A DNA stretch of 64,000 nt from a virus (Duplodnaviria > Caudoviricetes). The translations under genes and the position numbers were made by a program. Of the stretch, positions 1,983 to 58,871 are shown piece after piece (within the stretch, counting starts at the first letter, position 1; each line of letters opens with the position of its first letter). Location of the stretch: positions 1-64,000 of IMG/VR virus record IMGVR_UViG_2854208954_000001. The stretch is one strand, 5' to 3'. Under the pieces are notes generated by a model. It made no database searches, was not told the origin of the DNA, and worked only from the letters and a program-made list of their open reading frames with translations.

Positions 1983-3627
1983 GTGTCGAGTCCTTTCTGC
2001 CCCATTGTTTTCCGAATAAAGCTTCTCCTTCAGCATCAATTTTAAGTACCTTATATTTCTGCAATAATTCATTGGTTTCTTTGCCGTAATTTTCTTCATG
2101 GTCAAAGGAAATAAAAATCTGCTTATCTTTTTCTTCAGAATATAGTTGCAATAATCTGCAAATGTTTCTATCAGAAATATATGGAAATAGCAGAGAATCG
2201 TGAGCGATTGCCGGCAGGTTTGTGAGCTTTAAAATGCTTAGGTCGTAAAACAGCATACCTTTATAGTTTGTTCCGGTTCCAGTGTTTCTTGGAGTTTCAA
2301 AGGTATAACTGTCTGCTTCATTGATTCTAATAACAGGAAAGTTGTCAATACCTTCCGAAACAAAATCACTTATTTCTGTCAGCTTTTCTTGGATTTGTAC
2401 TTCTAATTCATGCAAGATGATTTTCATATGTTCTTTCAATCGTTTGTTTGCCAGCTTTTTTTCATTCTGCAGTCTATTCCTGGTGATGAATGCATCATTT
2501 TCATCTTCAAGTTTATGAATTCTGCGATCAAGCTGTGTATAGGCATCCAAAAATTCATGACTAAATGCCATAGATGGCTTAATTTCTTCAATCTGCCTTT
2601 GCAAACTTTCAACAACCTCTTCTAAAGGCTTAATTGCCTGCTCTGCATCTTTTTTGGCTTCTAATAATTCTTCCTCAAGAATCGCCTGTATTTTATTATG
2701 AAATCTTTCAATATCCATAAGTTTTCTAAAGTTTGCTTCTGGAAAGAAATCAGAAAGACTTTTCAGGTCAGCTTCAGTAGGATATACACCTTGACTAATA
2801 TTTAAATTGATGAGGTGCAAATCACTTTTCTTTTGTTGCAATTTAACACGAGCATCTCTTAACTGCAATTTCAAGTAATTAGATTCATTTGCTTTTTCTA
2901 TATCGTTAGAGGTAATGCCGCTATTGTTGGTTGCTTCAAGTTGTTCTTTTTCATGTTTGAGTGAGGATATCATAGAGAGATTTTCCTCATATTTTTTTGT
3001 GCCATCAACTGCGGACGGTATAAATTCATATTTTCTAGCTTCTCTAAATGCAGTTATACGTTTGTCGACATCACTGATTTGTTCCTCGAATGCTTTTATT
3101 TCTGAGTATCGATCAAATAGTGTTACCAGAATTTTAATAGCATCTTTTTTTGACTCAGTACCACCACGTGTTTGAAGAGGGTGCAACTCACTATAGTTGT
3201 TTTTTCCGTATATGCGAAAAAATCTACTAAGTGTGTTTCTAAACTGCATTCCTTCATAATCCATATGATATTGGTGTTCTAACCATTTAATATAATCCCC
3301 TTTCGTTTGTGTAGTGATAATATTGCCATTGGCATCAACGATGCCAATGTTTGCAGAAGAATTCGTAGATCTAGCAAAGTGGTGGTCTTTGCCATTAAAG
3401 TTAAAAGTAAAATATATAGTATGGTTACCAAGTTCCTTTACTGCATCACTTTTAGAATAGGTATCTCCACCAAATACGAAATCAATAATCAATAGAGAAG
3501 TTGATTTTCCGATGGATGTAGTGCCAACTTTACTTCCTAATATTACATTTAGACCATTGTGGAAGATAATCTTGCCACTTGGTCTTGTTTTTGTTTTTAA
3601 GAGTTCACAGTATATCTCCTTTAGCAT
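1966..3627 (-). CDS. lmuB: SMC-like ABC ATPase (DUF2326 type), ABC-3C/Lamassu LmuB-like
   Basis: N-terminal P-loop GSKVGTTSIGKST, long coiled coil, C-terminal Walker B-like AIAHDS and FISFD. Confidence 0.8.
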   Translation of the reverse strand: MLKEIYCELLKTKTRPSGKIIFHNGLNVILGSKVGTTSIGKSTSLLIIDFVFGGDTYSKSDAVKELGNHTIYFTFNFNGKDHHFARSTNSSANIGIVDANGNIITTQTKGDYIKWLEHQYHMDYEGMQFRNTLSRFFRIYGKNNYSELHPLQTRGGTESKKDAIKILVTLFDRYSEIKAFEEQISDVDKRITAFREARKYEFIPSAVDGTKKYEENLSMISSLKHEKEQLEATNNSGITSNDIEKANESNYLKLQLRDARVKLQQKKSDLHLINLNISQGVYPTEADLKSLSDFFPEANFRKLMDIERFHNKIQAILEEELLEAKKDAEQAIKPLEEVVESLQRQIEEIKPSMAFSHEFLDAYTQLDRRIHKLEDENDAFITRNRLQNEKKLANKRLKEHMKIILHELEVQIQEKLTEISDFVSEGIDNFPVIRINEADSYTFETPRNTGTGTNYKGMLFYDLSILKLTNLPAIAHDSLLFPYISDRNICRLLQLYSEEKDKQIFISFDHEENYGKETNELLQKYKVLKIDAEGEALFGKQWGRKDSTHENSI

Positions 3628-16928: not shown

Positions 16929-16959
16929 AAAAAACAATCCCATCGTTCCGACAGGATTG
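16929..16959 (-). terminator. Intrinsic terminator in the leader of 16591-16887
   Basis: Minus strand CAATCC...GGATTG followed by a U6 tract. Confidence 0.7.
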
Positions 16960-16980
16960 CAAAAATCTTTATAACCCTAT

Positions 16981-17040
16981 CGGTCAAGCTTTAGCACCTT
17001 ACCTTTTGGCAGGTTGCTGTGCGGTCAACGAGCTTGTCTC
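16981..17040 (-). ncRNA. c-di-GMP-I-like riboswitch candidate (variant)
   Basis: Minus strand CGCACAGCAACC-UGCC-AAAA-GGUA-AGGUGCUAAAGC resembles GGCAAACC..GAAA..GGGACGCAAAGC; terminator downstream; P3 not convincing. Confidence 0.35.
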
Positions 17041-17102
17041 TCACGCACTCTTTATAGGCTATTTTTAAATTAACACAACAATACAGAATTGTCAAGCAAA
17101 AA

Positions 17103-49279: not shown

Positions 49280-50212
49280 TTACATATTAAGTGTACCAAG
49301 CACCTTACCTACACAACGAACATCATCAAATCCGTGTAAAGGTATAGGCTTATAGGCTGGATTAAGTGAAACAAGCTCCTTTTTTCCTAATTTTTTAATA
49401 TACGATTCACCGTTAAGTACAAAAACCCCGATTTCGCCTTCAAAGACACTTGATGTTTGCTTAACAAGCACGGTTTCGCCGTTTGAAAATTTAGGTTGCA
49501 TACTATCACCTGATATTTTTAACGCAAAATCAGCTGAAGTAGTCATATCATTTCGTGGAACAGTAAGCCATTCAGCTAAAATATCATCGCCAAGCCATGA
49601 GCCAGTACCTGCTGAAACCGGTGTTTCATAGAACGGAATTACAATAGTGCTTTCAGCAACAGGCTTCTGCTCAGGAGTTATAAGATTAGTAATTCTTTTT
49701 AATACGGCAACTTCACCGTTGATAAATCTTTTATTGTGAAAACTATAATCGAACACTTTCCCGAAATCCGTTGCTGTTCGAAAATCATCAACATATCGTT
49801 CAATTCTACCTATCAATTCAGTTATTGCAGAAAACAAGTACTGTTTATCTTTGGCAAATAAAGCATCATTATATTGAATTCTTCTTAAAGAATATAAAAC
49901 AGAATGAATTCTATCCAAACTATGTTCATCAAGCTCGTCACACATCTTCTCAAAATTAAACATAGATAAGCTATGGTCATCACGAATTTCTTCCTTATTT
50001 GTTTCATCTCTGCCAAGTAAAATATCAACACTTACATCAAAATAATCAGCCATTTTTATAAGTGTTTTTATATCTGGTTCTCTTTTTCCTGCCTCATAAA
50101 GAGAAATGGTACTTTCAGAAAGACCGAGAATTTTTCCTAATTCTTTCATTGATAATTTGTGTTCTTTTCGTAATTCTTTTAGTTTAGTCATAAGCTCAGC
50201 CCCTATTGTCAT
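49280..50212 (-). CDS. CI/LexA-like repressor (HTH plus S24 peptidase)
   Basis: HTH_3 N-terminus; VSAG cleavage site, SGDSM serine, YIKKL lysine. Confidence 0.93.
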   Translation of the reverse strand: MTIGAELMTKLKELRKEHKLSMKELGKILGLSESTISLYEAGKREPDIKTLIKMADYFDVSVDILLGRDETNKEEIRDDHSLSMFNFEKMCDELDEHSLDRIHSVLYSLRRIQYNDALFAKDKQYLFSAITELIGRIERYVDDFRTATDFGKVFDYSFHNKRFINGEVAVLKRITNLITPEQKPVAESTIVIPFYETPVSAGTGSWLGDDILAEWLTVPRNDMTTSADFALKISGDSMQPKFSNGETVLVKQTSSVFEGEIGVFVLNGESYIKKLGKKELVSLNPAYKPIPLHGFDDVRCVGKVLGTLNM

Positions 50213-50220
50213 TATTATAA

Positions 50221-50328
50221 ACTTTACTATTAGTAAAGTAAATTAAACTTTGCAAAATGTCAAGAAAAAACTTGACAAATAGTAAATAAAGGCGTATTAT
50301 ATACTTGAAACTTGACAATATGCAAAGT
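50221..50328. promoter_or_regulatory. Four 19-bp operators and a sigmaA promoter of the genetic switch
   Basis: ACTTTACTATTAGTAAAGT (50221), ACTTTGCAAAATGTCAAGA (50247), ACTTGACAAATAGTAAATA (50270), ACTTGACAATATGCAAAGT (50310); TTGACA-17-TATTAT at 50272-50300. Confidence 0.8.
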
Positions 50329-50954: not shown

Positions 50955-51127
50955 ATTTATTTGAAAGGAAAAATTTAACTAAAACCGAAAAACTTGAAAA
51001 AATACTCAGAAAATACGGAATAAATTTTGACGATTTAAGACAGCTTAATGAATCTCAGATTAAAGCAGTAGAAACAGACTATTATTCAACTTATGGTGAA
51101 TCAATATCAATAATGTTTGATTTTTAA
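50939..51127 (+). CDS. Hypothetical phage protein
   Basis: AGGAGG RBS, MDRLDLFERK. Confidence 0.65.
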   Translation, partial: LMDRLDLFERKNLTKTEKLEKILRKYGINFDDLRQLNESQIKAVETDYYSTYGESISIMFDF

Positions 51128-51189
51128 GCCGAAACCGCCGCAAGGCGGTCAGCAGGAAATGACCTACCTGCTCTGATGATGGCAGGTCA
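51128..51189 (+). ncRNA. Hammerhead ribozyme, type II, with loop I pseudoknot
   Basis: GCC-GAAAC-CGCC/GGCG-GUC-AGCAGG/CCUGCU-CUGAUGA-U-GGC; loop UGACCU pairs with tail AGGUCA. Confidence 0.88.
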
Positions 51190-51204
51190 AAAGGATGTGA
51201 TTTT

Positions 51205-53163
51205 TTGATTTATCTAACGGCAAAGGAAGTTGCTGGGATAAAAGGTTGCTCTGAACGATATGTAAAAATGCTCATAAACAATGGAAGTCTTCAGGGTGAT
51301 GAAACAATAAACCAAAACAACCGCAAAAAATATTTGATACCTTTAAATGAACTATCCCACTCGGAACAGCTTAAATACTACAAATCGCACGCAATAGCAA
51401 TTCCTGAGGATTTGCTCCCCGAACGCAAGACGGAGCGACCCCACAAGGAATTTGATGAATTTTCGGCGGTACAGCGTGAAGAGATTGCCGAATGGATAAG
51501 GATACTTAATGCTTGGGATGAGTATTGTGCAACATCAAAGTTACAGAAAGTACCTGCAACAGAAAAATTTGTACAACTGCAAAAGGTCGCTAATCCCGAC
51601 CTTAACATATCGAAGGGAATTTTGTACCGGAAAAAAAAGGCTTTAAAAGCCGATGATCTTGCAGGACTGCTTGACAATCGTGGAAGTTGGAAAAAAGGTA
51701 CATCGTCAATTCCTGAAGAAGTGTGGCAATGCTTTTTAAGTTTTTATCTTGATGAGGCACAGCACCCTATACAGGCGTGCTATGAATACACCGAAATGTG
51801 GATTAAGCGAGAAGCTCCACAGCTGTTACCTCTCCCTGCTTATGCATCGTTTTACAGGAAAGTACAAACGGCAATACCTAAGCCTGTTGAAATTATGGGA
51901 CGGCAAGGTATGAAAGCCTTTAGGGACAGGTGTGCTCCGTACATACGCAGGACATACGAAGGAATGGCGTCAAACGAATGGTGGATTGCAGATAACCACA
52001 CATTTGATGTGCAGACAAAGGGAGAAAACGGAAGTATCCACAGGCTTTATCTTACAGCGTTTTTTGATGCTCGTTCGGGTATTTTTACAGGCTGTTATGT
52101 GACCGATGCACCGTCATCGCAGGCTACATTGATAGCTCTACGAAAGGGCATAGTTAAGTACGGCATACCCGAAAACATATATGTAGATAACGGTCGAGAG
52201 TTTCTGACATTCGATGTCGGCGGACTTGGTCATAGATTGAAAAAGAGTCAAAAGGACAAGTTTGCACCGCCGCCTGTTTTTGAACGGCTGGGCATTAAAA
52301 TGACAAATGCTATCGTACGAAATGCGAAGGCAAAGATTATTGAAAGACGATTTCGAGATGTTAAAGACCGACTTTCAAGACTGTTTCCGACTTATACAGG
52401 CGGTAATGTAGTCGAACGACCGGAAAGACTTAAAAAGGTAATCAGGGACACCGACAACATACCCACGGATTATGAATTCACTCAGGCAGTTGAGGACATT
52501 TTAACCTACTATATGAATGAAAAACCATATAGCGGAGCGGTAAGCTCAGACAGCGGTAAAAGCCGAATGCAGGTTTACAGAGAACAACTTAAAGAAAAAC
52601 GAGTCGCCGCAGAACTTGACCTCAACTTGATGTTAATGAGAAGCACAAGAAGTCAGAAAGTCGGCAGGCGTGGAGTACATCTTACTGTTGCAGGCGAGAA
52701 AATTGATTACTACAATGATGACCTTATTTTAAATCATTTTGGAGAATCTGTTTACTGTCGATATGACCCGGAAGATATTTCGGAAGTCAGAATTTATGAC
52801 CTTGATGATAACTACATAATGACCGCTCCAACAGACAATGAAGCAGTCCTTGCCTACGGAGCATCTAAAGATGCAGTTGCTCAGGCACTCCGTAAGGTTA
52901 AGAGCCTTGAAAAACTCACTAAACAGGAACTCAAGGCAAGTCAGATTACAGCATTTGGCAAAGAAACAGCACTCAATCTTGTGCTTGCAACCGCTGAGGA
53001 AAACAAAGCAAATGCCGAGGAAATCAATCCGAAGGTTATATCAGTACACCGTGCCGATGAAACGGCAGAGCAGTTGCCTATGGCAGTTGGTCAGTCGAAT
53101 ATCGTAACGATAGATAAGGCAAAAATGATAAGAAATCTTGAACAGCGACAAAAGGAGGAATAA
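51205..53163 (+). CDS. Mu-type DDE transposase (MuA-like)
   Basis: WWIADNHTFD, YVDNGREF, KIIERRF, Mu C-terminal YCRYDPED. Confidence 0.95.
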   Translation: MIYLTAKEVAGIKGCSERYVKMLINNGSLQGDETINQNNRKKYLIPLNELSHSEQLKYYKSHAIAIPEDLLPERKTERPHKEFDEFSAVQREEIAEWIRILNAWDEYCATSKLQKVPATEKFVQLQKVANPDLNISKGILYRKKKALKADDLAGLLDNRGSWKKGTSSIPEEVWQCFLSFYLDEAQHPIQACYEYTEMWIKREAPQLLPLPAYASFYRKVQTAIPKPVEIMGRQGMKAFRDRCAPYIRRTYEGMASNEWWIADNHTFDVQTKGENGSIHRLYLTAFFDARSGIFTGCYVTDAPSSQATLIALRKGIVKYGIPENIYVDNGREFLTFDVGGLGHRLKKSQKDKFAPPPVFERLGIKMTNAIVRNAKAKIIERRFRDVKDRLSRLFPTYTGGNVVERPERLKKVIRDTDNIPTDYEFTQAVEDILTYYMNEKPYSGAVSSDSGKSRMQVYREQLKEKRVAAELDLNLMLMRSTRSQKVGRRGVHLTVAGEKIDYYNDDLILNHFGESVYCRYDPEDISEVRIYDLDDNYIMTAPTDNEAVLAYGASKDAVAQALRKVKSLEKLTKQELKASQITAFGKETALNLVLATAEENKANAEEINPKVISVHRADETAEQLPMAVGQSNIVTIDKAKMIRNLEQRQKEE

Positions 53164-53166
53164 TAA

Positions 53167-54087
53167 ATGTCGGTAATGTCAGCCAATCCTGAATTACAGG
53201 AGAAATTAAGGAACTTTATCGAAGAGTGCGGCTCACAAACCAAAGCCGCAAAAGCTCTCGGAAAGTCAGCAGCGACTTTGTCAACCTACTTGAACAACCG
53301 TTATAACGGTAATTTAAGTGATTTTGAAAAGTTTTTAACAGAGACTTTTGAAACAAAAGCCGCTGCAGAAAATCTCAAATCAGCTCAGGTGCTTAACAGC
53401 TACAAGCCTACAAGCATAAGCTCAGAGGTTTATGATACAATCCGCTTGTGTCATCTTAAGGGCGGTCTTGCAATTGAGTGTGGCGATGCAGGCATAGGAA
53501 AAACAATGGCTTGTAAAAAGTATGCAGAAGATTATCCGGCTACTGCGATTTATGTGTCTGTAAATCCTTGCTTGGTAACTTTGAGTGCCTTTTTAAAACT
53601 GCTTTGCAGAACACAGAAAATCACCGCAACAGGTCGCAAAGATGAAATGTGGTTAAGACTTGCAGATAGCTTTGAAGGTGAACGCAAGGTACTCATCATT
53701 GATGAGGCACAGCATCTGCCGATTAAAACCATTGAGGCTATCAGAGCTTTTTTTGATAGCAACCCACAGCTTGGTATTTGCCTTGTCGGAAACATTGAAA
53801 CCGTTACAAATACCGGCAAAAGCAAAGAAGCGTTCGCTCAGATTCGTAACCGTACAAAACTTACCGAAGTAAGGCATACATCAGCAATTAAAAACAGCGA
53901 CATTGAGCTGTTGTTTCCTGCCGTTAAGTCCGATGAACGAGCAGTAAGTTTTTTACTTGGCATTGCAAGGTCTGAACAGGGCATCAGAGGAGCAAGCAAT
54001 GTTTTTGGAAATGCCGTTGACAACGGAAACATCACCTATGAAGGCTTAATCGCAATGGCAAAAGCTATGCGTATCAAGGTGTTTTAA
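53167..54087 (+). CDS. MuB-like AAA+ transposition ATPase
   Basis: GDAGIGKT, LIIDEAQHL, N-terminal HTH. Confidence 0.93.
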   Translation: MSVMSANPELQEKLRNFIEECGSQTKAAKALGKSAATLSTYLNNRYNGNLSDFEKFLTETFETKAAAENLKSAQVLNSYKPTSISSEVYDTIRLCHLKGGLAIECGDAGIGKTMACKKYAEDYPATAIYVSVNPCLVTLSAFLKLLCRTQKITATGRKDEMWLRLADSFEGERKVLIIDEAQHLPIKTIEAIRAFFDSNPQLGICLVGNIETVTNTGKSKEAFAQIRNRTKLTEVRHTSAIKNSDIELLFPAVKSDERAVSFLLGIARSEQGIRGASNVFGNAVDNGNITYEGLIAMAKAMRIKVF

Positions 54088-54109
54088 ATAATATTCGGAG
54101 GGATTTTAA

Positions 54110-54346
54110 ATGTCGTTAAGAAAAATCGTGTTACTGCTCGCCGCAGGGTTCAGCACGGGAGTAGTAATGACCGCCGCATTCGGTCAAATGGGTACAAGGA
54201 GCTTTACAGCAGGCGGAGAAATTTGCTTTGTGCCTATGGTGCTCCTGCTTGTATGGGTCGGTTGGATGATCCGTGGCGAAAGCCGAAAGGTAAAAAAGAG
54301 TAAAAGGAGGGGTAACAATGACCGCAGAAGAGTGGAAAAAGGTTGA
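54110..54346 (+). CDS. Small two-TM membrane protein
   Basis: Two hydrophobic segments and a basic tail; GGAGG RBS. Confidence 0.7.
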   Translation: MSLRKIVLLLAAGFSTGVVMTAAFGQMGTRSFTAGGEICFVPMVLLLVWVGWMIRGESRKVKKSKRRGNNDRRRVEKG

Positions 54347-54704
54347 CGAAGCCCTTACATCTGTATGGAGTCCGTATGTACATCTCAAAATTGACGGATA
54401 TAAAGTATCTCTGAACCTCACTCAAAAATCACGATTTCAAAATGTTATTGCAGTTTATATCAACGATGAATTTCGTGGCAAGTGGCTTATGGAGGACTGC
54501 GAAGAACGCAGGAGATTTTGTTGCTGTAAGAGACAGTCGGTAGTTACCGAAAAAGATTGCAAACTTTACGGAGCTCGTAGCAAGAAAGCTAAGCAGGAAC
54601 TCAAAGAGAAGTTTGGCTATGATGTGTATTTACCATATTGGACAAACTTTGAGAAAATGAAAAAACATTTTATTGCTAATAACAAAAGCATTGAACTTTA
54701 TTAA
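54318..54704 (+). CDS. Hypothetical phage protein
   Basis: AGGAGG RBS, operonic. Confidence 0.75.
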   Translation: MTAEEWKKVDEALTSVWSPYVHLKIDGYKVSLNLTQKSRFQNVIAVYINDEFRGKWLMEDCEERRRFCCCKRQSVVTEKDCKLYGARSKKAKQELKEKFGYDVYLPYWTNFEKMKKHFIANNKSIELY

Positions 54705-54721
54705 ATTTCGGAGGGATAAAA

Positions 54722-55018
54722 ATGGAAGATTACACAGTTGAATTTGGAAATGAATTGAGTGGTGCGATAATAGATTCGTTTGCTAAAAAAGCCAAAACCG
54801 CTGTTTGTGAAAAAAAGGTAGTAATAATTTCGGTTGAAAATTCTGACAAAACAACCGACTCTGTTGTAACAGGAAATGCTATCGATATTCTTGGAAAAAT
54901 AGGGTCATTAACAATTGAAGTTATAAAAAAGCTCGAAAAAAATATGGGCAAAACTTTTGCAGATAGAACTTTAGAAGGCTTTATATGTGCAATAAAAGAG
55001 GTTAATGAGCGGAGATAA
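54722..55018 (+). CDS. Hypothetical phage protein
   Basis: GGAGG RBS, operonic. Confidence 0.7.
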   Translation: MEDYTVEFGNELSGAIIDSFAKKAKTAVCEKKVVIISVENSDKTTDSVVTGNAIDILGKIGSLTIEVIKKLEKNMGKTFADRTLEGFICAIKEVNERR

Positions 55019-55026
55019 TCCGCTCA

Positions 55027-55085
55027 CCTTAATGCAACTTCCGCCAACGGGAACGGTCACAAGTCCGTATGAATGCAGAGTGAGG
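55027..55085 (+). ncRNA. Twister ribozyme, P1 type
   Basis: CCU-UAA-UGCA-AC-[UUCCG/CGGGAA]-CGG-UCACAAGU-CCG-UAUGAA-UGCA-GA-GUG-AGG; both pseudoknots pair (CAC/GUG, AC/GU). Confidence 0.85.
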
Positions 55086-55119
55086 ACAACAATACATATT
55101 GAACAGGAGGTCAATTTAT

Positions 55120-55374
55120 ATGAAAACATCAAAGAAAATCTGTAAAAACGGCTCTATTACTCTGCCAAAGCAGATAAGAGGCGAAGCAGGATTGTTTCCG
55201 GGCAATGCTGTTGACATTGAAACAAGTACAGACGGCACTGTTACAATTAAACCGTCTGCTCCCTGTTGTCGCTTTTGCGGTACAGTTGAAAATGTAATCA
55301 TTGCAGATAATGTTATCATCTGCCGCAAATGTGCCGAAAAATTACTTGCAAAGGTGGATAAAACAAATGACTGA
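55120..55374 (+). CDS. AbrB/SpoVT-family DNA-binding protein with C-terminal Zn ribbon
   Basis: GSITLPKQIR...DGTVTIKP; CRFC...CRKC. Confidence 0.88.
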   Translation: MKTSKKICKNGSITLPKQIRGEAGLFPGNAVDIETSTDGTVTIKPSAPCCRFCGTVENVIIADNVIICRKCAEKLLAKVDKTND

Positions 55375-56002
55375 TTTAAAAAAGCAGATTGATGAGCTTG
55401 CAGGCATTAAAGCAGATATGAGCAAACTCAAAGCACGCAAGGACAAGCTCGAAGCAGAGATTATTATGCAGTGCTCGGAAGACCTTGAAAACACCAAATA
55501 TAAAAGTGTCCATTACGCAGGCACAGAATCAGAGCTTACAGCGGTAACTTCGGAATCTCTCAAAATTACATACAACTCATTTTTGCTCTCAATTTTTGGC
55601 AAAGCATACAAAGATGCGGTTACGGAAAAGACAGAATATTCCCTCTCTGCTCCGGCAAAAAGAATGCTCATCGGTTTGTGGAAGGGCAATTTTGTAAGAT
55701 GCACCGTCAAAGAAGTTATTGAACAGATGAACGGCGTGTCTGATGACGAACGCAAACAGCTTGTCAAAAAATGCAAGGGCATTAACTACGATAAGGATGT
55801 AAACAACATTTTAAAGTTCACAAACCTTTCGGAGGACGATGCAAAAGAGTATGCCTACCTCATTTCAGAGGCGGCTGTATGGCAGGACTTCAAAAACCTG
55901 CTGACCGTCAACTGTATGGACGAAAGTCATATTGACGATATCCTAATGAAGATACAGAGCAGTTTTGTTGTTGAGGACAGCACAAAGATATCTTTAAGCT
56001 GA
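55367..56002 (+). CDS. Hypothetical Mu-like early protein
   Basis: Long operonic ORF overlapping the previous stop. Confidence 0.75.
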   Translation: MTDLKKQIDELAGIKADMSKLKARKDKLEAEIIMQCSEDLENTKYKSVHYAGTESELTAVTSESLKITYNSFLLSIFGKAYKDAVTEKTEYSLSAPAKRMLIGLWKGNFVRCTVKEVIEQMNGVSDDERKQLVKKCKGINYDKDVNNILKFTNLSEDDAKEYAYLISEAAVWQDFKNLLTVNCMDESHIDDILMKIQSSFVVEDSTKISLS

Positions 56003-56003
56003 G

Positions 56004-56516
56004 GTGATTGATTTGTTAAAGCCACAGCAGACACAAAGAATATACGCAATGGCGGCACGGCTCGGTGTGTTGGAATCGGGCAACAAAAACGATATGCTGC
56101 ACACGATTGTTTATCGTCTTACTCAAAAGGAGAGCATACGCACTCTTGATGAAAACGAATACCGAACAGTTGTCGCAGAACTTGCCGAAAGGCTGAAATT
56201 GCAGAGCCTCACAGAGCCGCCGAAACCGTATAAGAAGAAAAGATACGAGGACAGCGGCAGAGGAAAAATGTCAGACGGTCAGAAACGCAAAGTGTGGCAG
56301 TTGATGTACCAGCTTGAAAAATACGATACCGAGCCTACCACAGCTAAACTCGGCGACAGACTCTGCGGTATTATAAAGAAAGAGTTAAAAATTGACTGTA
56401 CATCAAAGCAGCCTTTTAGGTGGCTGACATATAATCAGGGCATAACCTTGATTGAAAAACTTAAAAAGTACATTGACAGTGCTCAAAGGAGGAAGGCTGG
56501 TGAAAATAAATCTTGA
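56004..56516 (+). CDS. GemA/gp16-like (DUF1018) regulatory protein
   Basis: RIYAMAARLG, LIEKLK; lies before mor. Confidence 0.75.
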   Translation: MIDLLKPQQTQRIYAMAARLGVLESGNKNDMLHTIVYRLTQKESIRTLDENEYRTVVAELAERLKLQSLTEPPKPYKKKRYEDSGRGKMSDGQKRKVWQLMYQLEKYDTEPTTAKLGDRLCGIIKKELKIDCTSKQPFRWLTYNQGITLIEKLKKYIDSAQRRKAGENKS

Positions 56517-56787
56517 TGATTTGGTAGGCACTCAAAGGGATATAGCGGAGATAATAGGAATTGAAAGCTATATTAAACTCTGTCAAACATTTGGTGGAGA
56601 TACAATATATATCCAAAAATACAGCGAGTTACAAAAACTTGAACGCAATGCTGAAATCAAGGCGAAGTACAATGGATACAACAGCAGTCAGCTCGCAAGA
56701 GAGTATGATTTGTCTGAAAGGTATGTGAGAATCATATGCTCAAACGGTAATCTTGACGGTCAGTTAAGTATTTTTGATGATATATAA
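56500..56787 (+). CDS. mor: Mor-family transcription activator
   Basis: FGGDTIYI, ERNAEIK..YNGYNSSQLAREYDLSERYVRII. Confidence 0.9.
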   Translation: MKINLDDLVGTQRDIAEIIGIESYIKLCQTFGGDTIYIQKYSELQKLERNAEIKAKYNGYNSSQLAREYDLSERYVRIICSNGNLDGQLSIFDDI

Positions 56788-56834: not shown

Positions 56835-56879
56835 ATAAGGTATTATTAAGTTACAGACTTAATGATACCTTATTTTTTT
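56835..56879 (+). terminator. Hairpin terminator between the middle and late regions
   Basis: ATAAGGTAT-TATTAAGT/ACTTAATG-ATACCTTAT followed by T7. Confidence 0.65.
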
Positions 56880-57560: not shown

Positions 57561-58115
57561 ATGGGCAGAAACAACCGCAGAGCTTGCGGAAAAATCGACA
57601 AATTGCCTCCTGACCTCAAGGACACCGTAGATCAGATGCTTGTCAGCGGACAGACCTATCGTGAAATTGTGTCATACCTTGCTGATAACGGCGAACAGCT
57701 GTCACAGGCAGCAGTTAGCCGTTACGCATCAAGGTTTTTGGCGAACGCTCAGCAGTTACGAATCGCACAGGAAAATTTCAGAATGATACTCACCGAAACC
57801 GAGCGTTATCCTGAAATTGACCCTGCAGAGGCTATTTTGAGAATGGCATCACAAAAGGTTTTTGATGCCATATCAAAACTTGACGAAGGACAATTCGATA
57901 AAGTGTCTGCCGAAGACCTTTTAAGACAGGCTACTGCCCTTGCGAGAGCAGTAACATACAAGCGTAAGACCGACACGGATGTCAAGTCAGACAAGCGTCT
58001 TGCCCTCGAGGAAAATCAGAGCCTGCTTTATGACACTATCAAGAAAAGTAACCCACGGCTCTACAACGAGCTTATGGATGAAATCAACAAGCTCAAAGCA
58101 AAGGAGCAAGGATGA
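57561..58115 (+). CDS. DUF3486 / Mu gp27-like protein
   Basis: KIDKLP, TYREIV..L, SQAAVSRY. Confidence 0.85.
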   Translation: MGRNNRRACGKIDKLPPDLKDTVDQMLVSGQTYREIVSYLADNGEQLSQAAVSRYASRFLANAQQLRIAQENFRMILTETERYPEIDPAEAILRMASQKVFDAISKLDEGQFDKVSAEDLLRQATALARAVTYKRKTDTDVKSDKRLALEENQSLLYDTIKKSNPRLYNELMDEINKLKAKEQG

Positions 58116-58621
58116 TGAACATCAAGTGGTATGTTTTGTATGTAAACACAGGACAAGAACATGCTGTTGCGGAACAGCTCCGACATCGTGGTTATGATGC
58201 CATTGTGCCGATTGAAAACAAACTGATACGCTCAAAAGGCAAGTGGATAACCCAACCGCATATACTTTTTGACGGCTATGTTTTCGTTCGTATGGATTAC
58301 GAGTGGTCAAAATATTATGTGTTTAAGGGCATTCCGAACATTATTAGATTGCTCGGAGGTGGAACAAGCCCTATCCCTCTTACGGACACAGAATCAGAGT
58401 TTATTTTGACTTTGAGCGAACTTTTGAAAACTCCCTCGGTGCTTAAATTCACTGATGACGGTTACGAAACAGTCAGCGGATTTTTGGCTGAGAATAAAGA
58501 TAAAATTGTGAAAGTACAGAAACGATACAAGAAAGCAACGGTCAAAATTACCCTTGCAAGTGAGCCGACTGAGCTTACAGTATCGTTTACCGAACAAATG
58601 CCCGAACAGACGGCGGATTGA
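58112..58621 (+). CDS. NusG-paralogue antitermination factor (LoaP/UpxY/RfaH-like)
   Basis: WYVLYVNTGQE, ILFDGYVFV, IIRLLGGG; C-terminal KOW-like VSGFL. Confidence 0.85.
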   Translation: MMNIKWYVLYVNTGQEHAVAEQLRHRGYDAIVPIENKLIRSKGKWITQPHILFDGYVFVRMDYEWSKYYVFKGIPNIIRLLGGGTSPIPLTDTESEFILTLSELLKTPSVLKFTDDGYETVSGFLAENKDKIVKVQKRYKKATVKITLASEPTELTVSFTEQMPEQTAD

Positions 58622-58871
58622 TTCGTCTCCACCCGATGCAACGGCTGACATACGGCGAAGTCACCGATAACCTCAGGTTAGCGGATGGCGAAGCTATACC
58701 CAAGTTAAAAACAGCGGTTTGTTCGTTCATGGATAATCCCTCCGGTAATTAGTTCATATGGCTGACATTAAAATTAACACCACAAACCGCTGTTTTTTAT
58801 ATACATTAAAATGCTTTTAAACACCTTTTAACGGGTGTTTATTTTTATGCAAAAAAGAAAGAAGGTGCAAA

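Follow-up and report, generated by a model that had tools for sequence, protein, structure and literature searches.

A predicted type-P1 twister ribozyme between cistrons of the early operon in a Mu-like Clostridia prophage

The 64,000-nucleotide stretch of viral DNA analysed here (the window) probably encodes a functional type-P1 twister ribozyme at positions 55026-55086 of the + strand, with self-cleavage predicted from its fit to the family model, from covariation and from conservation. The twister lies within the rightward early operon of what is, judged from sequence, a Mu-like prophage with Ruminococcus-like hosts among the gut Clostridia. Transcript ‘punctuation’ is the likeliest role of this RNA. 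Specifically, with a probability of roughly 0.75, which includes uncertainties of direction, the ribozyme would cut the early polycistronic RNA during transcription and so yield messages with separate stabilities.

Structure and conservation of the twister candidate

A permissive Rfam scan of positions 54850-55300 (451 nt) matches 55026-55086 (+) to the twister-P1 family (RF03160, clan CL00120) over the full model, positions 1-68 of 68, with a score of 52.2 bits and an E value of 6.1e-11. When the search extends across the whole 79.5-kb provirus record, the same twister has an E value of 2.5e-12. The original prediction, made by inspection of the letters, had proposed a twister with stems P1 to P4 and both pseudoknots and had suggested comparison with the twister-P1 covariance model. 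The full-length match and a reading of its alignment bear out that proposal, and homology places the predicted cut at the very position that had been named. The elements are as follows, all on the + strand, with the helices and pseudoknots located by reading the alignment against the sequence.

55026-55086 (+): predicted type-P1 twister ribozyme, from the RF03160 match, covariation counts and the minimum free energy (MFE) fold
55027-29 / 55083-85 (+): P1, 3 bp only (CCU/AGG)
55033-36 / 55074-77 (+): P2
55039-43 / 55048-52 (+): P3
55053-56 / 55065-68 (+): P4
A55037-C55038 / G55063-U55064 (+): pseudoknot T1
C55058-A-C55060 / G55080-U-G55082 (+): pseudoknot T2
U55030/A55031 (+): cut site predicted by homology

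This architecture is that of other type-P1 twisters, which carry P1, P2, an optional P3, P4, two pseudoknots, conserved unpaired nucleotides and a U|AA cut, and the window RNA is a bacterial or phage example of the type that includes P3. In this family, T1 joins the two nucleotides that follow P2 to a GC in loop 4, and T2 joins a CNC in loop 4 to the GNG that precedes the 3′ strand of P1. Type-P1 twister ribozymes are said to have been described by Roth et al. in 2014. The ViennaRNA MFE structure of positions 54995-55125 alone comprises an upstream hairpin followed by P1-P4 as expected. The end coordinate first given, 55119, is too far downstream: the last position of the ribozyme is 55086, and positions 55087-55119 are a spacer and a ribosome-binding site outside it.

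The twister is not reported in a gathering-threshold Rfam scan of the whole window, which lists three other RNAs, because the curated cut-off for RF03160 is 67.2 bits and the window twister, at 52.2 bits, falls below it. This cut-off is a curation threshold and not a structural feature. The low score arises because the covariance model cannot credit two compensated pairs, those in the pseudoknots. At paired positions the RNA departs from consensus by G12>A with C46>U, C41>A with G63>U and C14>U with G34>A, and all of these changes compensate one another pairwise. Unlike the RF03160 consensus, T1 thus uses A-U in place of G-C, and the middle pair of T2 is A-U. Other differences from the type-P1 consensus, besides the score, are that P1 has just 3 bp and that a separate hairpin abuts its 5′ side. 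The unpaired core is present at U55030/A55031-A55032, A55061-A55062-G55063, A55072-A55073 and G55078-A-G55080, all of which are invariant in an alignment of related twisters (described below). The second of these stretches is the AAG of loop 4, in which the G is the general base. The sole departure in this core is A53>G, that is, G55071 where the consensus has A, at a junction position that varies within the clade.

Relatives were retrieved with the downstream AbrB-like protein as query, which yielded 35 IMG/VR proviruses at 77-99% identity as well as five loci from metagenome-assembled genomes (MAGs) titled Clostridia, Clostridiales or Ruminococcus. A twister occupies the same junction in 35/35 of these proviruses and in 5/5 of the MAG loci. 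For covariation analysis, we aligned 24 distinct twisters, including four unrelated ones from 151 genomes of the same bacterial order. Standard pairs fill 96.7% of the pair cells in this alignment, compared with 18-40% when partners are slid, and changes on both sides occur in 12 of the 22 pairs, with P3 and P1 varying by double changes. P1 is a weak helix: it is 84% paired across the alignment, and two single-sequence variants (L006 and L011) each break one of its pairs. Pseudoknot pair 12-40 of T1 is G-C in 13 sequences, A-U in 11 and unpaired in none, and T2 is 100% paired, its middle pair being A-U in 23 sequences and C-G in one. Covariation therefore backs the helices P1, P2 and P4 (P3 being optional), and both pseudoknots are present.

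The substitutions that had been noted relative to the rice twister, CAC/GUG in T2 and AC/GU in T1, are real and compensatory. We also surveyed phage twisters by a pattern scan of viral contigs (L164-L277), in which the matches listed reduce to 62 sequence clusters. Among these clusters from the matches listed, the T2 forms are CAC/GUG in 40, CCC/GGG in 14, CGC/GCG in 4 and CUC/GAG in 3. We therefore reject the view that CAC/GUG is an unusual variant; among the matches listed it is the majority form, and the usual one in phages. A search of viral contigs with an exact 14-mer of the core proved not to be specific and gave mostly unrelated contigs among the matches listed. A blastn comparison of positions 54300-56000 with the GenBank phage collection gave no match.

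Of the six twisters found in the 151 bacterial genomes, one reaches the RF03160 cut-off. Genome G144 (contig 27, locus L159), a bacterial genome of the same order as MAG host G003, carries two twisters on the same strand, at 1092-1143 and 1501-1562 of the locus and 409 nt apart. Both have a preceding hairpin, and together they bracket a short stretch.

We consider it almost certain that 55026-55086 is a genuine member of the twister family, as judged from its sequence. It is conceivable that the element is an inactive relic, or a look-alike that adopts the twister structure without cutting, and its score under the Rfam cut-off, its short P1 and the G55071 substitution would all fit such an RNA. 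However, every paired departure is compensated, the pseudoknot pairs covary and G55071 occupies a variable junction position within an otherwise conserved clade. Moreover, large-scale assays report natural twisters to be tolerant of many imperfections, provided that these spare the pseudoknots and catalytic residues (PMC11662667). A relic or look-alike is thus extremely unlikely.

Operon context and proposed transcript processing

The twister lies among Mu-like genes on its own strand, namely those for MuA, MuB, GemA, Mor and Mu gp27. Features of the surrounding region are listed below.

49280-50212 (-): CI-like repressor, from the gene map
50272-50300 (+): strong promoter-like site, predicted from sequence by a promoter scan
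Between this promoter-like site and the hammerhead (+): Cro-like helix-turn-helix gene, from the gene map
51127-51191 (+): type II hammerhead ribozyme (RF02276, 42.5 bits against a cut-off of 37)
C51150/A51151 (+): predicted hammerhead cut site, just upstream of MuA
51205-53163 (+): MuA-like transposase (PF09299, PF09039, rve and DDE_2; phrog_310, E 2.9e-117)
53167-54087 (+): MuB-like AAA+ transposition ATPase (PF13401; phrog_296, E 7.6e-55)
54722-55018 (+): small ORF of 98 aa without a family match, final cistron in the MuA-MuB segment
55006-55026 (+): G+C-rich hairpin of 8 bp with loop GAUAA, from the MFE fold, running directly into P1
55105-55110 (+): AGGAGG, the ribosome-binding site for the AbrB-like gene, 19 nt past the ribozyme and kept in relatives
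55120-55374 (+): AbrB/MazE-fold (SpoVT-AbrB) gene (PF04014, E 7.8e-07; phrog_4681, E 2.5e-13)
56004-56516 (+): GemA (PF06252)
56452-56787 (+): Mor-family activator (PF08765)
56835-56873 (+): terminator-like hairpin with a clean T run, from a terminator scan, after Mor
58112-58621 (+): NusG-paralog gene (PF02357, E 1.6e-19)
58612-58694 (+): RAGATH-28 RNA (RF03052, 67.1 bits against a cut-off of 45.3)
58818-58841: terminator-like hairpin 3′ of RAGATH-28, followed by the terminase genes

Three small ORFs separate MuB from the hairpin and twister. On the other side, the AbrB-like gene is the first cistron of the predicted downstream cleavage product, as the original prediction had placed it, and is followed by an ORF without a known family. 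Beyond 56873 come Mu gp27 and the NusG paralog, among other genes, then RAGATH-28, the terminator-like hairpin and the terminase genes. Terminator scanning of the + strand finds none from the hammerhead to the twister, the next with a clean T run being that at 56835-56873. The hammerhead and twister cuts delimit the segment 51151-55030 just as had been proposed, and this segment contains MuA and MuB. The gene order would fit a split of the transcript into regulatory, transposition and late-activation segments. The hammerhead lies at the same place in 14/14 related loci scanned, and the trio of twister, hammerhead and RAGATH-28 recurs in 14/14 close relatives. Elsewhere in the window, a SAM-I riboswitch is found at 16937-17060 (-) with 61.5 bits against a cut-off of 44.4, which is unusual cargo for a phage.

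In the mechanism that we propose, the early promoter (the promoter-like site at 50272-50300) would drive one long transcript, on which the twister would fold during transcription and cut between U55030 and A55031. The upstream RNA, carrying MuA, MuB and the three small ORFs, would then end in a 2′,3′-cyclic phosphate four bases past the G+C-rich hairpin (hairpin-CCUU), and this stable structure near the new 3′ end would shield the RNA from 3′ exonucleases. The downstream RNA, carrying the AbrB-like gene, the ORF without a known family, GemA and Mor, would begin with a 5′-OH and the compact folded body of the ribozyme, located 19 nt before the ribosome-binding site. Together with the hammerhead before MuA, the twister would yield regulatory, transposition and late-activation messages, and so uncouple their stability and translation.

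The fate of the downstream product could differ from this proposal. In B. subtilis, the 5′-OH product of the glmS ribozyme is reportedly degraded by RNase J1 (a finding attributed to Collins, 2007, a paper that PMC6765202 cites), and the downstream fragment could therefore be destabilised rather than stabilised. Cleavage might then mainly lower downstream expression, with the 5′-OH marking the AbrB-GemA-Mor fragment for RNase J-type decay, such that Mor-dependent middle and late expression would be delayed or damped relative to transposition. The glmS precedent comes from Firmicutes, the hosts here are Clostridia, and the downstream fragment carries Mor, which activates the next stage; all three points agree with such an effect. 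However, a compact, pseudoknotted ribozyme body would remain at the 5′ end of the downstream product, and crystal structures of twister are reported to show the 5′ end of the product buried (PMC8782182). In addition, among the phage clusters from the matches listed, a strong ribosome-binding site commonly follows the twister at close range (see below), and a structured 5′ end and a ribosome-binding site are both usual in protected, translated messages. We regard decay of the downstream fragment as an unlikely main outcome of cleavage.

The glmS ribozyme is otherwise an instructive comparison. Both are self-cleaving RNAs in Firmicutes mRNA, and the glmS cut alters message stability. In contrast, glmS depends on a metabolite and resides in a 5′ leader, whereas the twister has no known ligand and lies between cistrons.

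A companion hairpin beside phage twisters

The hairpin at 55006-55026 holds the stop codon of the upstream ORF (TAA, 55016-18) in its loop. At the same place in relatives the stem sequences are wholly different, with pairing kept. To score such hairpins among phage twisters, we counted perfect stems of 5 bp or longer, with three or more G-C pairs, that end from -4 to +2 nt of P1. A 5′-abutting hairpin of this kind accompanies 39 of the 62 phage twister clusters among the matches listed, compared with 1-7/62 at shifted positions, a mean of 4.4/62 in shuffles and 1 in a downstream control. On the other side of the ribozyme, a ribosome-binding site and start codon follow within 60 nt in 38 of 61 clusters among the matches listed (controls, 10/62 and 7.75). 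This pattern suggests a hairpin-twister-ribosome-binding-site module between cistrons. As read from its alignment, the type II hammerhead ends the corresponding upstream product with a stem-loop of its own and one further base. These arrangements support, without proof, a cut that creates a protected 3′ end upstream and a structured 5′ end downstream, and it is the position of the hairpin alone that points to a protective role.

Two other functions were considered for the hairpin. That it compensates for a short P1 is rejected, as the median length of P1 is 4 with a hairpin and 3 without (one-sided Mann-Whitney p = 0.94). It also lacks the hallmark of an intrinsic (Rho-independent) terminator, since no T run directly follows its G+C-rich stem on the + strand.

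The original prediction had raised the prospect that the hairpin ends early transcription, in which case the twister would belong to a separate transcript and never share one RNA with the hammerhead. A stable 8-bp G+C-rich stem at the stop codon of the upstream ORF could act in this way, and a weak promoter-like site at 54744-54771 (9/12 matches, with TG) could supply the second transcript. However, promoter-like sites are no commoner in the region than in shuffles (20 versus 25.8, thus no excess), and none follows the hairpin in the promoter scan. The stem is followed by CCTTAATGCAAC, with no T run on the + strand, and is unreported in the + strand terminator scan. Furthermore, a twister 0-2 nt past a terminator would be transcribed only by read-through, and the hairpin-plus-twister unit recurs in most of the unrelated phage clusters among the matches listed. 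Termination at the hairpin is thus very unlikely, and we favour a single early transcript that the twister would cut.

Ribozyme positions across the wider phage family

To view the wider family, an alignment of MuB homologues was used to collect 80 Mu-like proviruses; the 47 more distant loci (L297-L355) have MuB identity of 36-84%. A clade covariance model built from the 24 twisters detects 70 twisters in 41 of these 47 distant loci, and 70/70 lie on the operon strand. Gathering-threshold Rfam scans of 30 distant loci report type II hammerheads in 24, RAGATH-28 in 10 and twister-sister in one. No twister is reported by such scans in 44 related loci (14 close and 30 distant), although direct reading locates one in each of the 14 close loci, the clade model finds twisters in most of the 30 others, and RF03160 itself gives such phage twisters E values of 1e-9 to 1e-12. 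Thus, the Rfam cut-off misses twisters of the Mu-like phage family, and annotation that relies on it will pass over them.

Ribozymes recur at two junctions in this wider family, which extends to more distant phages the survey of positions that had been suggested. The first, about 2.0-2.4 kb ahead of where MuB starts, lies just before MuA. A hammerhead occupies it in the window and in about 17 of the loci scanned, L297, L313, L341 and L343 among them, whereas L332-L336, L338, L342 and L350 have a twister there. In L332, for example, an ORF ends at 3013, the twister spans 3024-3076 and a 642-aa MuA-sized ORF starts at 3086. Ribozyme class is therefore interchangeable at this fixed operon position. 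The second junction follows MuB by 0.02-1.2 kb and usually holds a twister. In the mechanism that we propose, the conserved element would be the cut at the junction, whichever ribozyme class makes it.

Two of these loci carry features of separate interest. In L332 (3024-3088), the 3′ strand of P1, AGGAGG, is also the Shine-Dalgarno sequence of MuA and is paired to CCUUCU, such that cleavage and loss of the 5′ strand of P1 could unmask the MuA ribosome-binding site. In L322, a twister-sister ribozyme at 1519-1588 (43.9 bits against a cut-off of 34) shares a Mu-like early operon with three hammerheads and one twister, and hence three ribozyme classes occur in one operon.

Hammerhead and twister ribozymes leave ends of established chemistry, and the 5′-OH and 2′,3′-cyclic phosphate expected from both predicted cuts are the ends that RtcB joins. 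The MuA-MuB RNA (51151-55030, 3880 nt) might consequently excise itself and be circularised by an RtcB-type ligase of host or phage, or its flanks might be spliced together, and the hammerhead-twister bracket around MuA-MuB is kept in 14/14 close relatives scanned. If true, a bacterial virus would have a circular transposase mRNA proof against exonucleases, or else a message in which regulatory and late parts are spliced together. Yet the number of ribozymes per operon varies from 1 to 5 across the wider family and the gene blocks between them differ, which fits punctuation at many junctions better, and the hairpin beside the newly formed 3′ terminus points to a linear end that is meant to last. 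In addition, a search by Perreault et al. for spliced or circular RNAs from clustered prophage hammerheads detected none (PMC3088659). We give very little credence to ligation of this kind, and prefer cutting into separate linear messages.

The third RNA of the trio, RAGATH-28, starts at the stop codon of the NusG-paralog gene. A NusG paralog is also next to RAGATH-28 in L297, L298, L319, L320 and L326. This adjacency is absent in L340, L343 and L351, in which the upstream ORF is small and without a family match. One possibility is that a LoaP-like antiterminator recognises RAGATH-28 in the RNA and thereby opens the late operon. We found no mention of RAGATH-28 in the literature searched, nor does RAGATH appear in the main text of a 2017 paper on 224 candidate RNA motifs.

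Twister cleavage as a means of processing polycistronic mRNA is an idea attributed to Felletti, Bieber and Hartig (2017; reference 148 of PMC6765202), who reportedly considered bacterial twisters in 3′ UTRs and polycistronic mRNAs, worked with reporters in E. coli and found that upstream message stability depends on the structures that cleavage leaves at its 3′ end. The broader pattern is also documented. In bacteria, hammerhead and twister ribozymes are enriched close to particular genes, above all those of Mu-like phages, and close to each other, for a reason stated to be unknown (PMC10085705). Shared gene neighbourhoods were the clue that twister is a ribozyme, and processing of polycistronic transcripts into parts of different stabilities was suggested (PMC6765202). 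Several hammerheads flank genes in prophages; their cleavage was shown both in vitro and in E. coli, and the authors proposed that long phage transcripts are processed in this way (PMC3088659).

The window conforms to these clustered prophage ribozymes, with several ribozymes of two classes on the coding strand between Mu-like cistrons and a RAGATH RNA nearby, and we see no essential difference from them (Perreault 2011, PMC3088659; work of the Weinberg group as summarised in PMC10085705 and PMC6765202). The original prediction was right that the operon holds a second ribozyme class, given the type II hammerhead at 51127-51191, but the pairing is no surprise, as such co-occurrence is published in the same three papers and was the signature by which twister and the RAGATH motifs were discovered. 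Its proposal of an ‘RNA-only processing system’ restates a published hypothesis. The ribozyme itself thus adds nothing new to the twister class and is an ordinary example of a published arrangement. What the present analysis adds, for one phage family, is a pair of fixed junctions, one in front of MuA and one behind the MuB block, the swapping of ribozyme class at the first of these and the survey of 5′ hairpins.

The value of this phage family is as a test bed for the clustering of hammerhead and twister ribozymes near Mu-like phage genes, the reason for which is stated to be unknown (PMC10085705, PMC6765202). It offers fixed junctions, classes that are swappable at one junction and many natural variants. 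The companion hairpin is a further handle, since its position beside the cut suggests that it may serve as a predictor of which cleavage product is stabilised.
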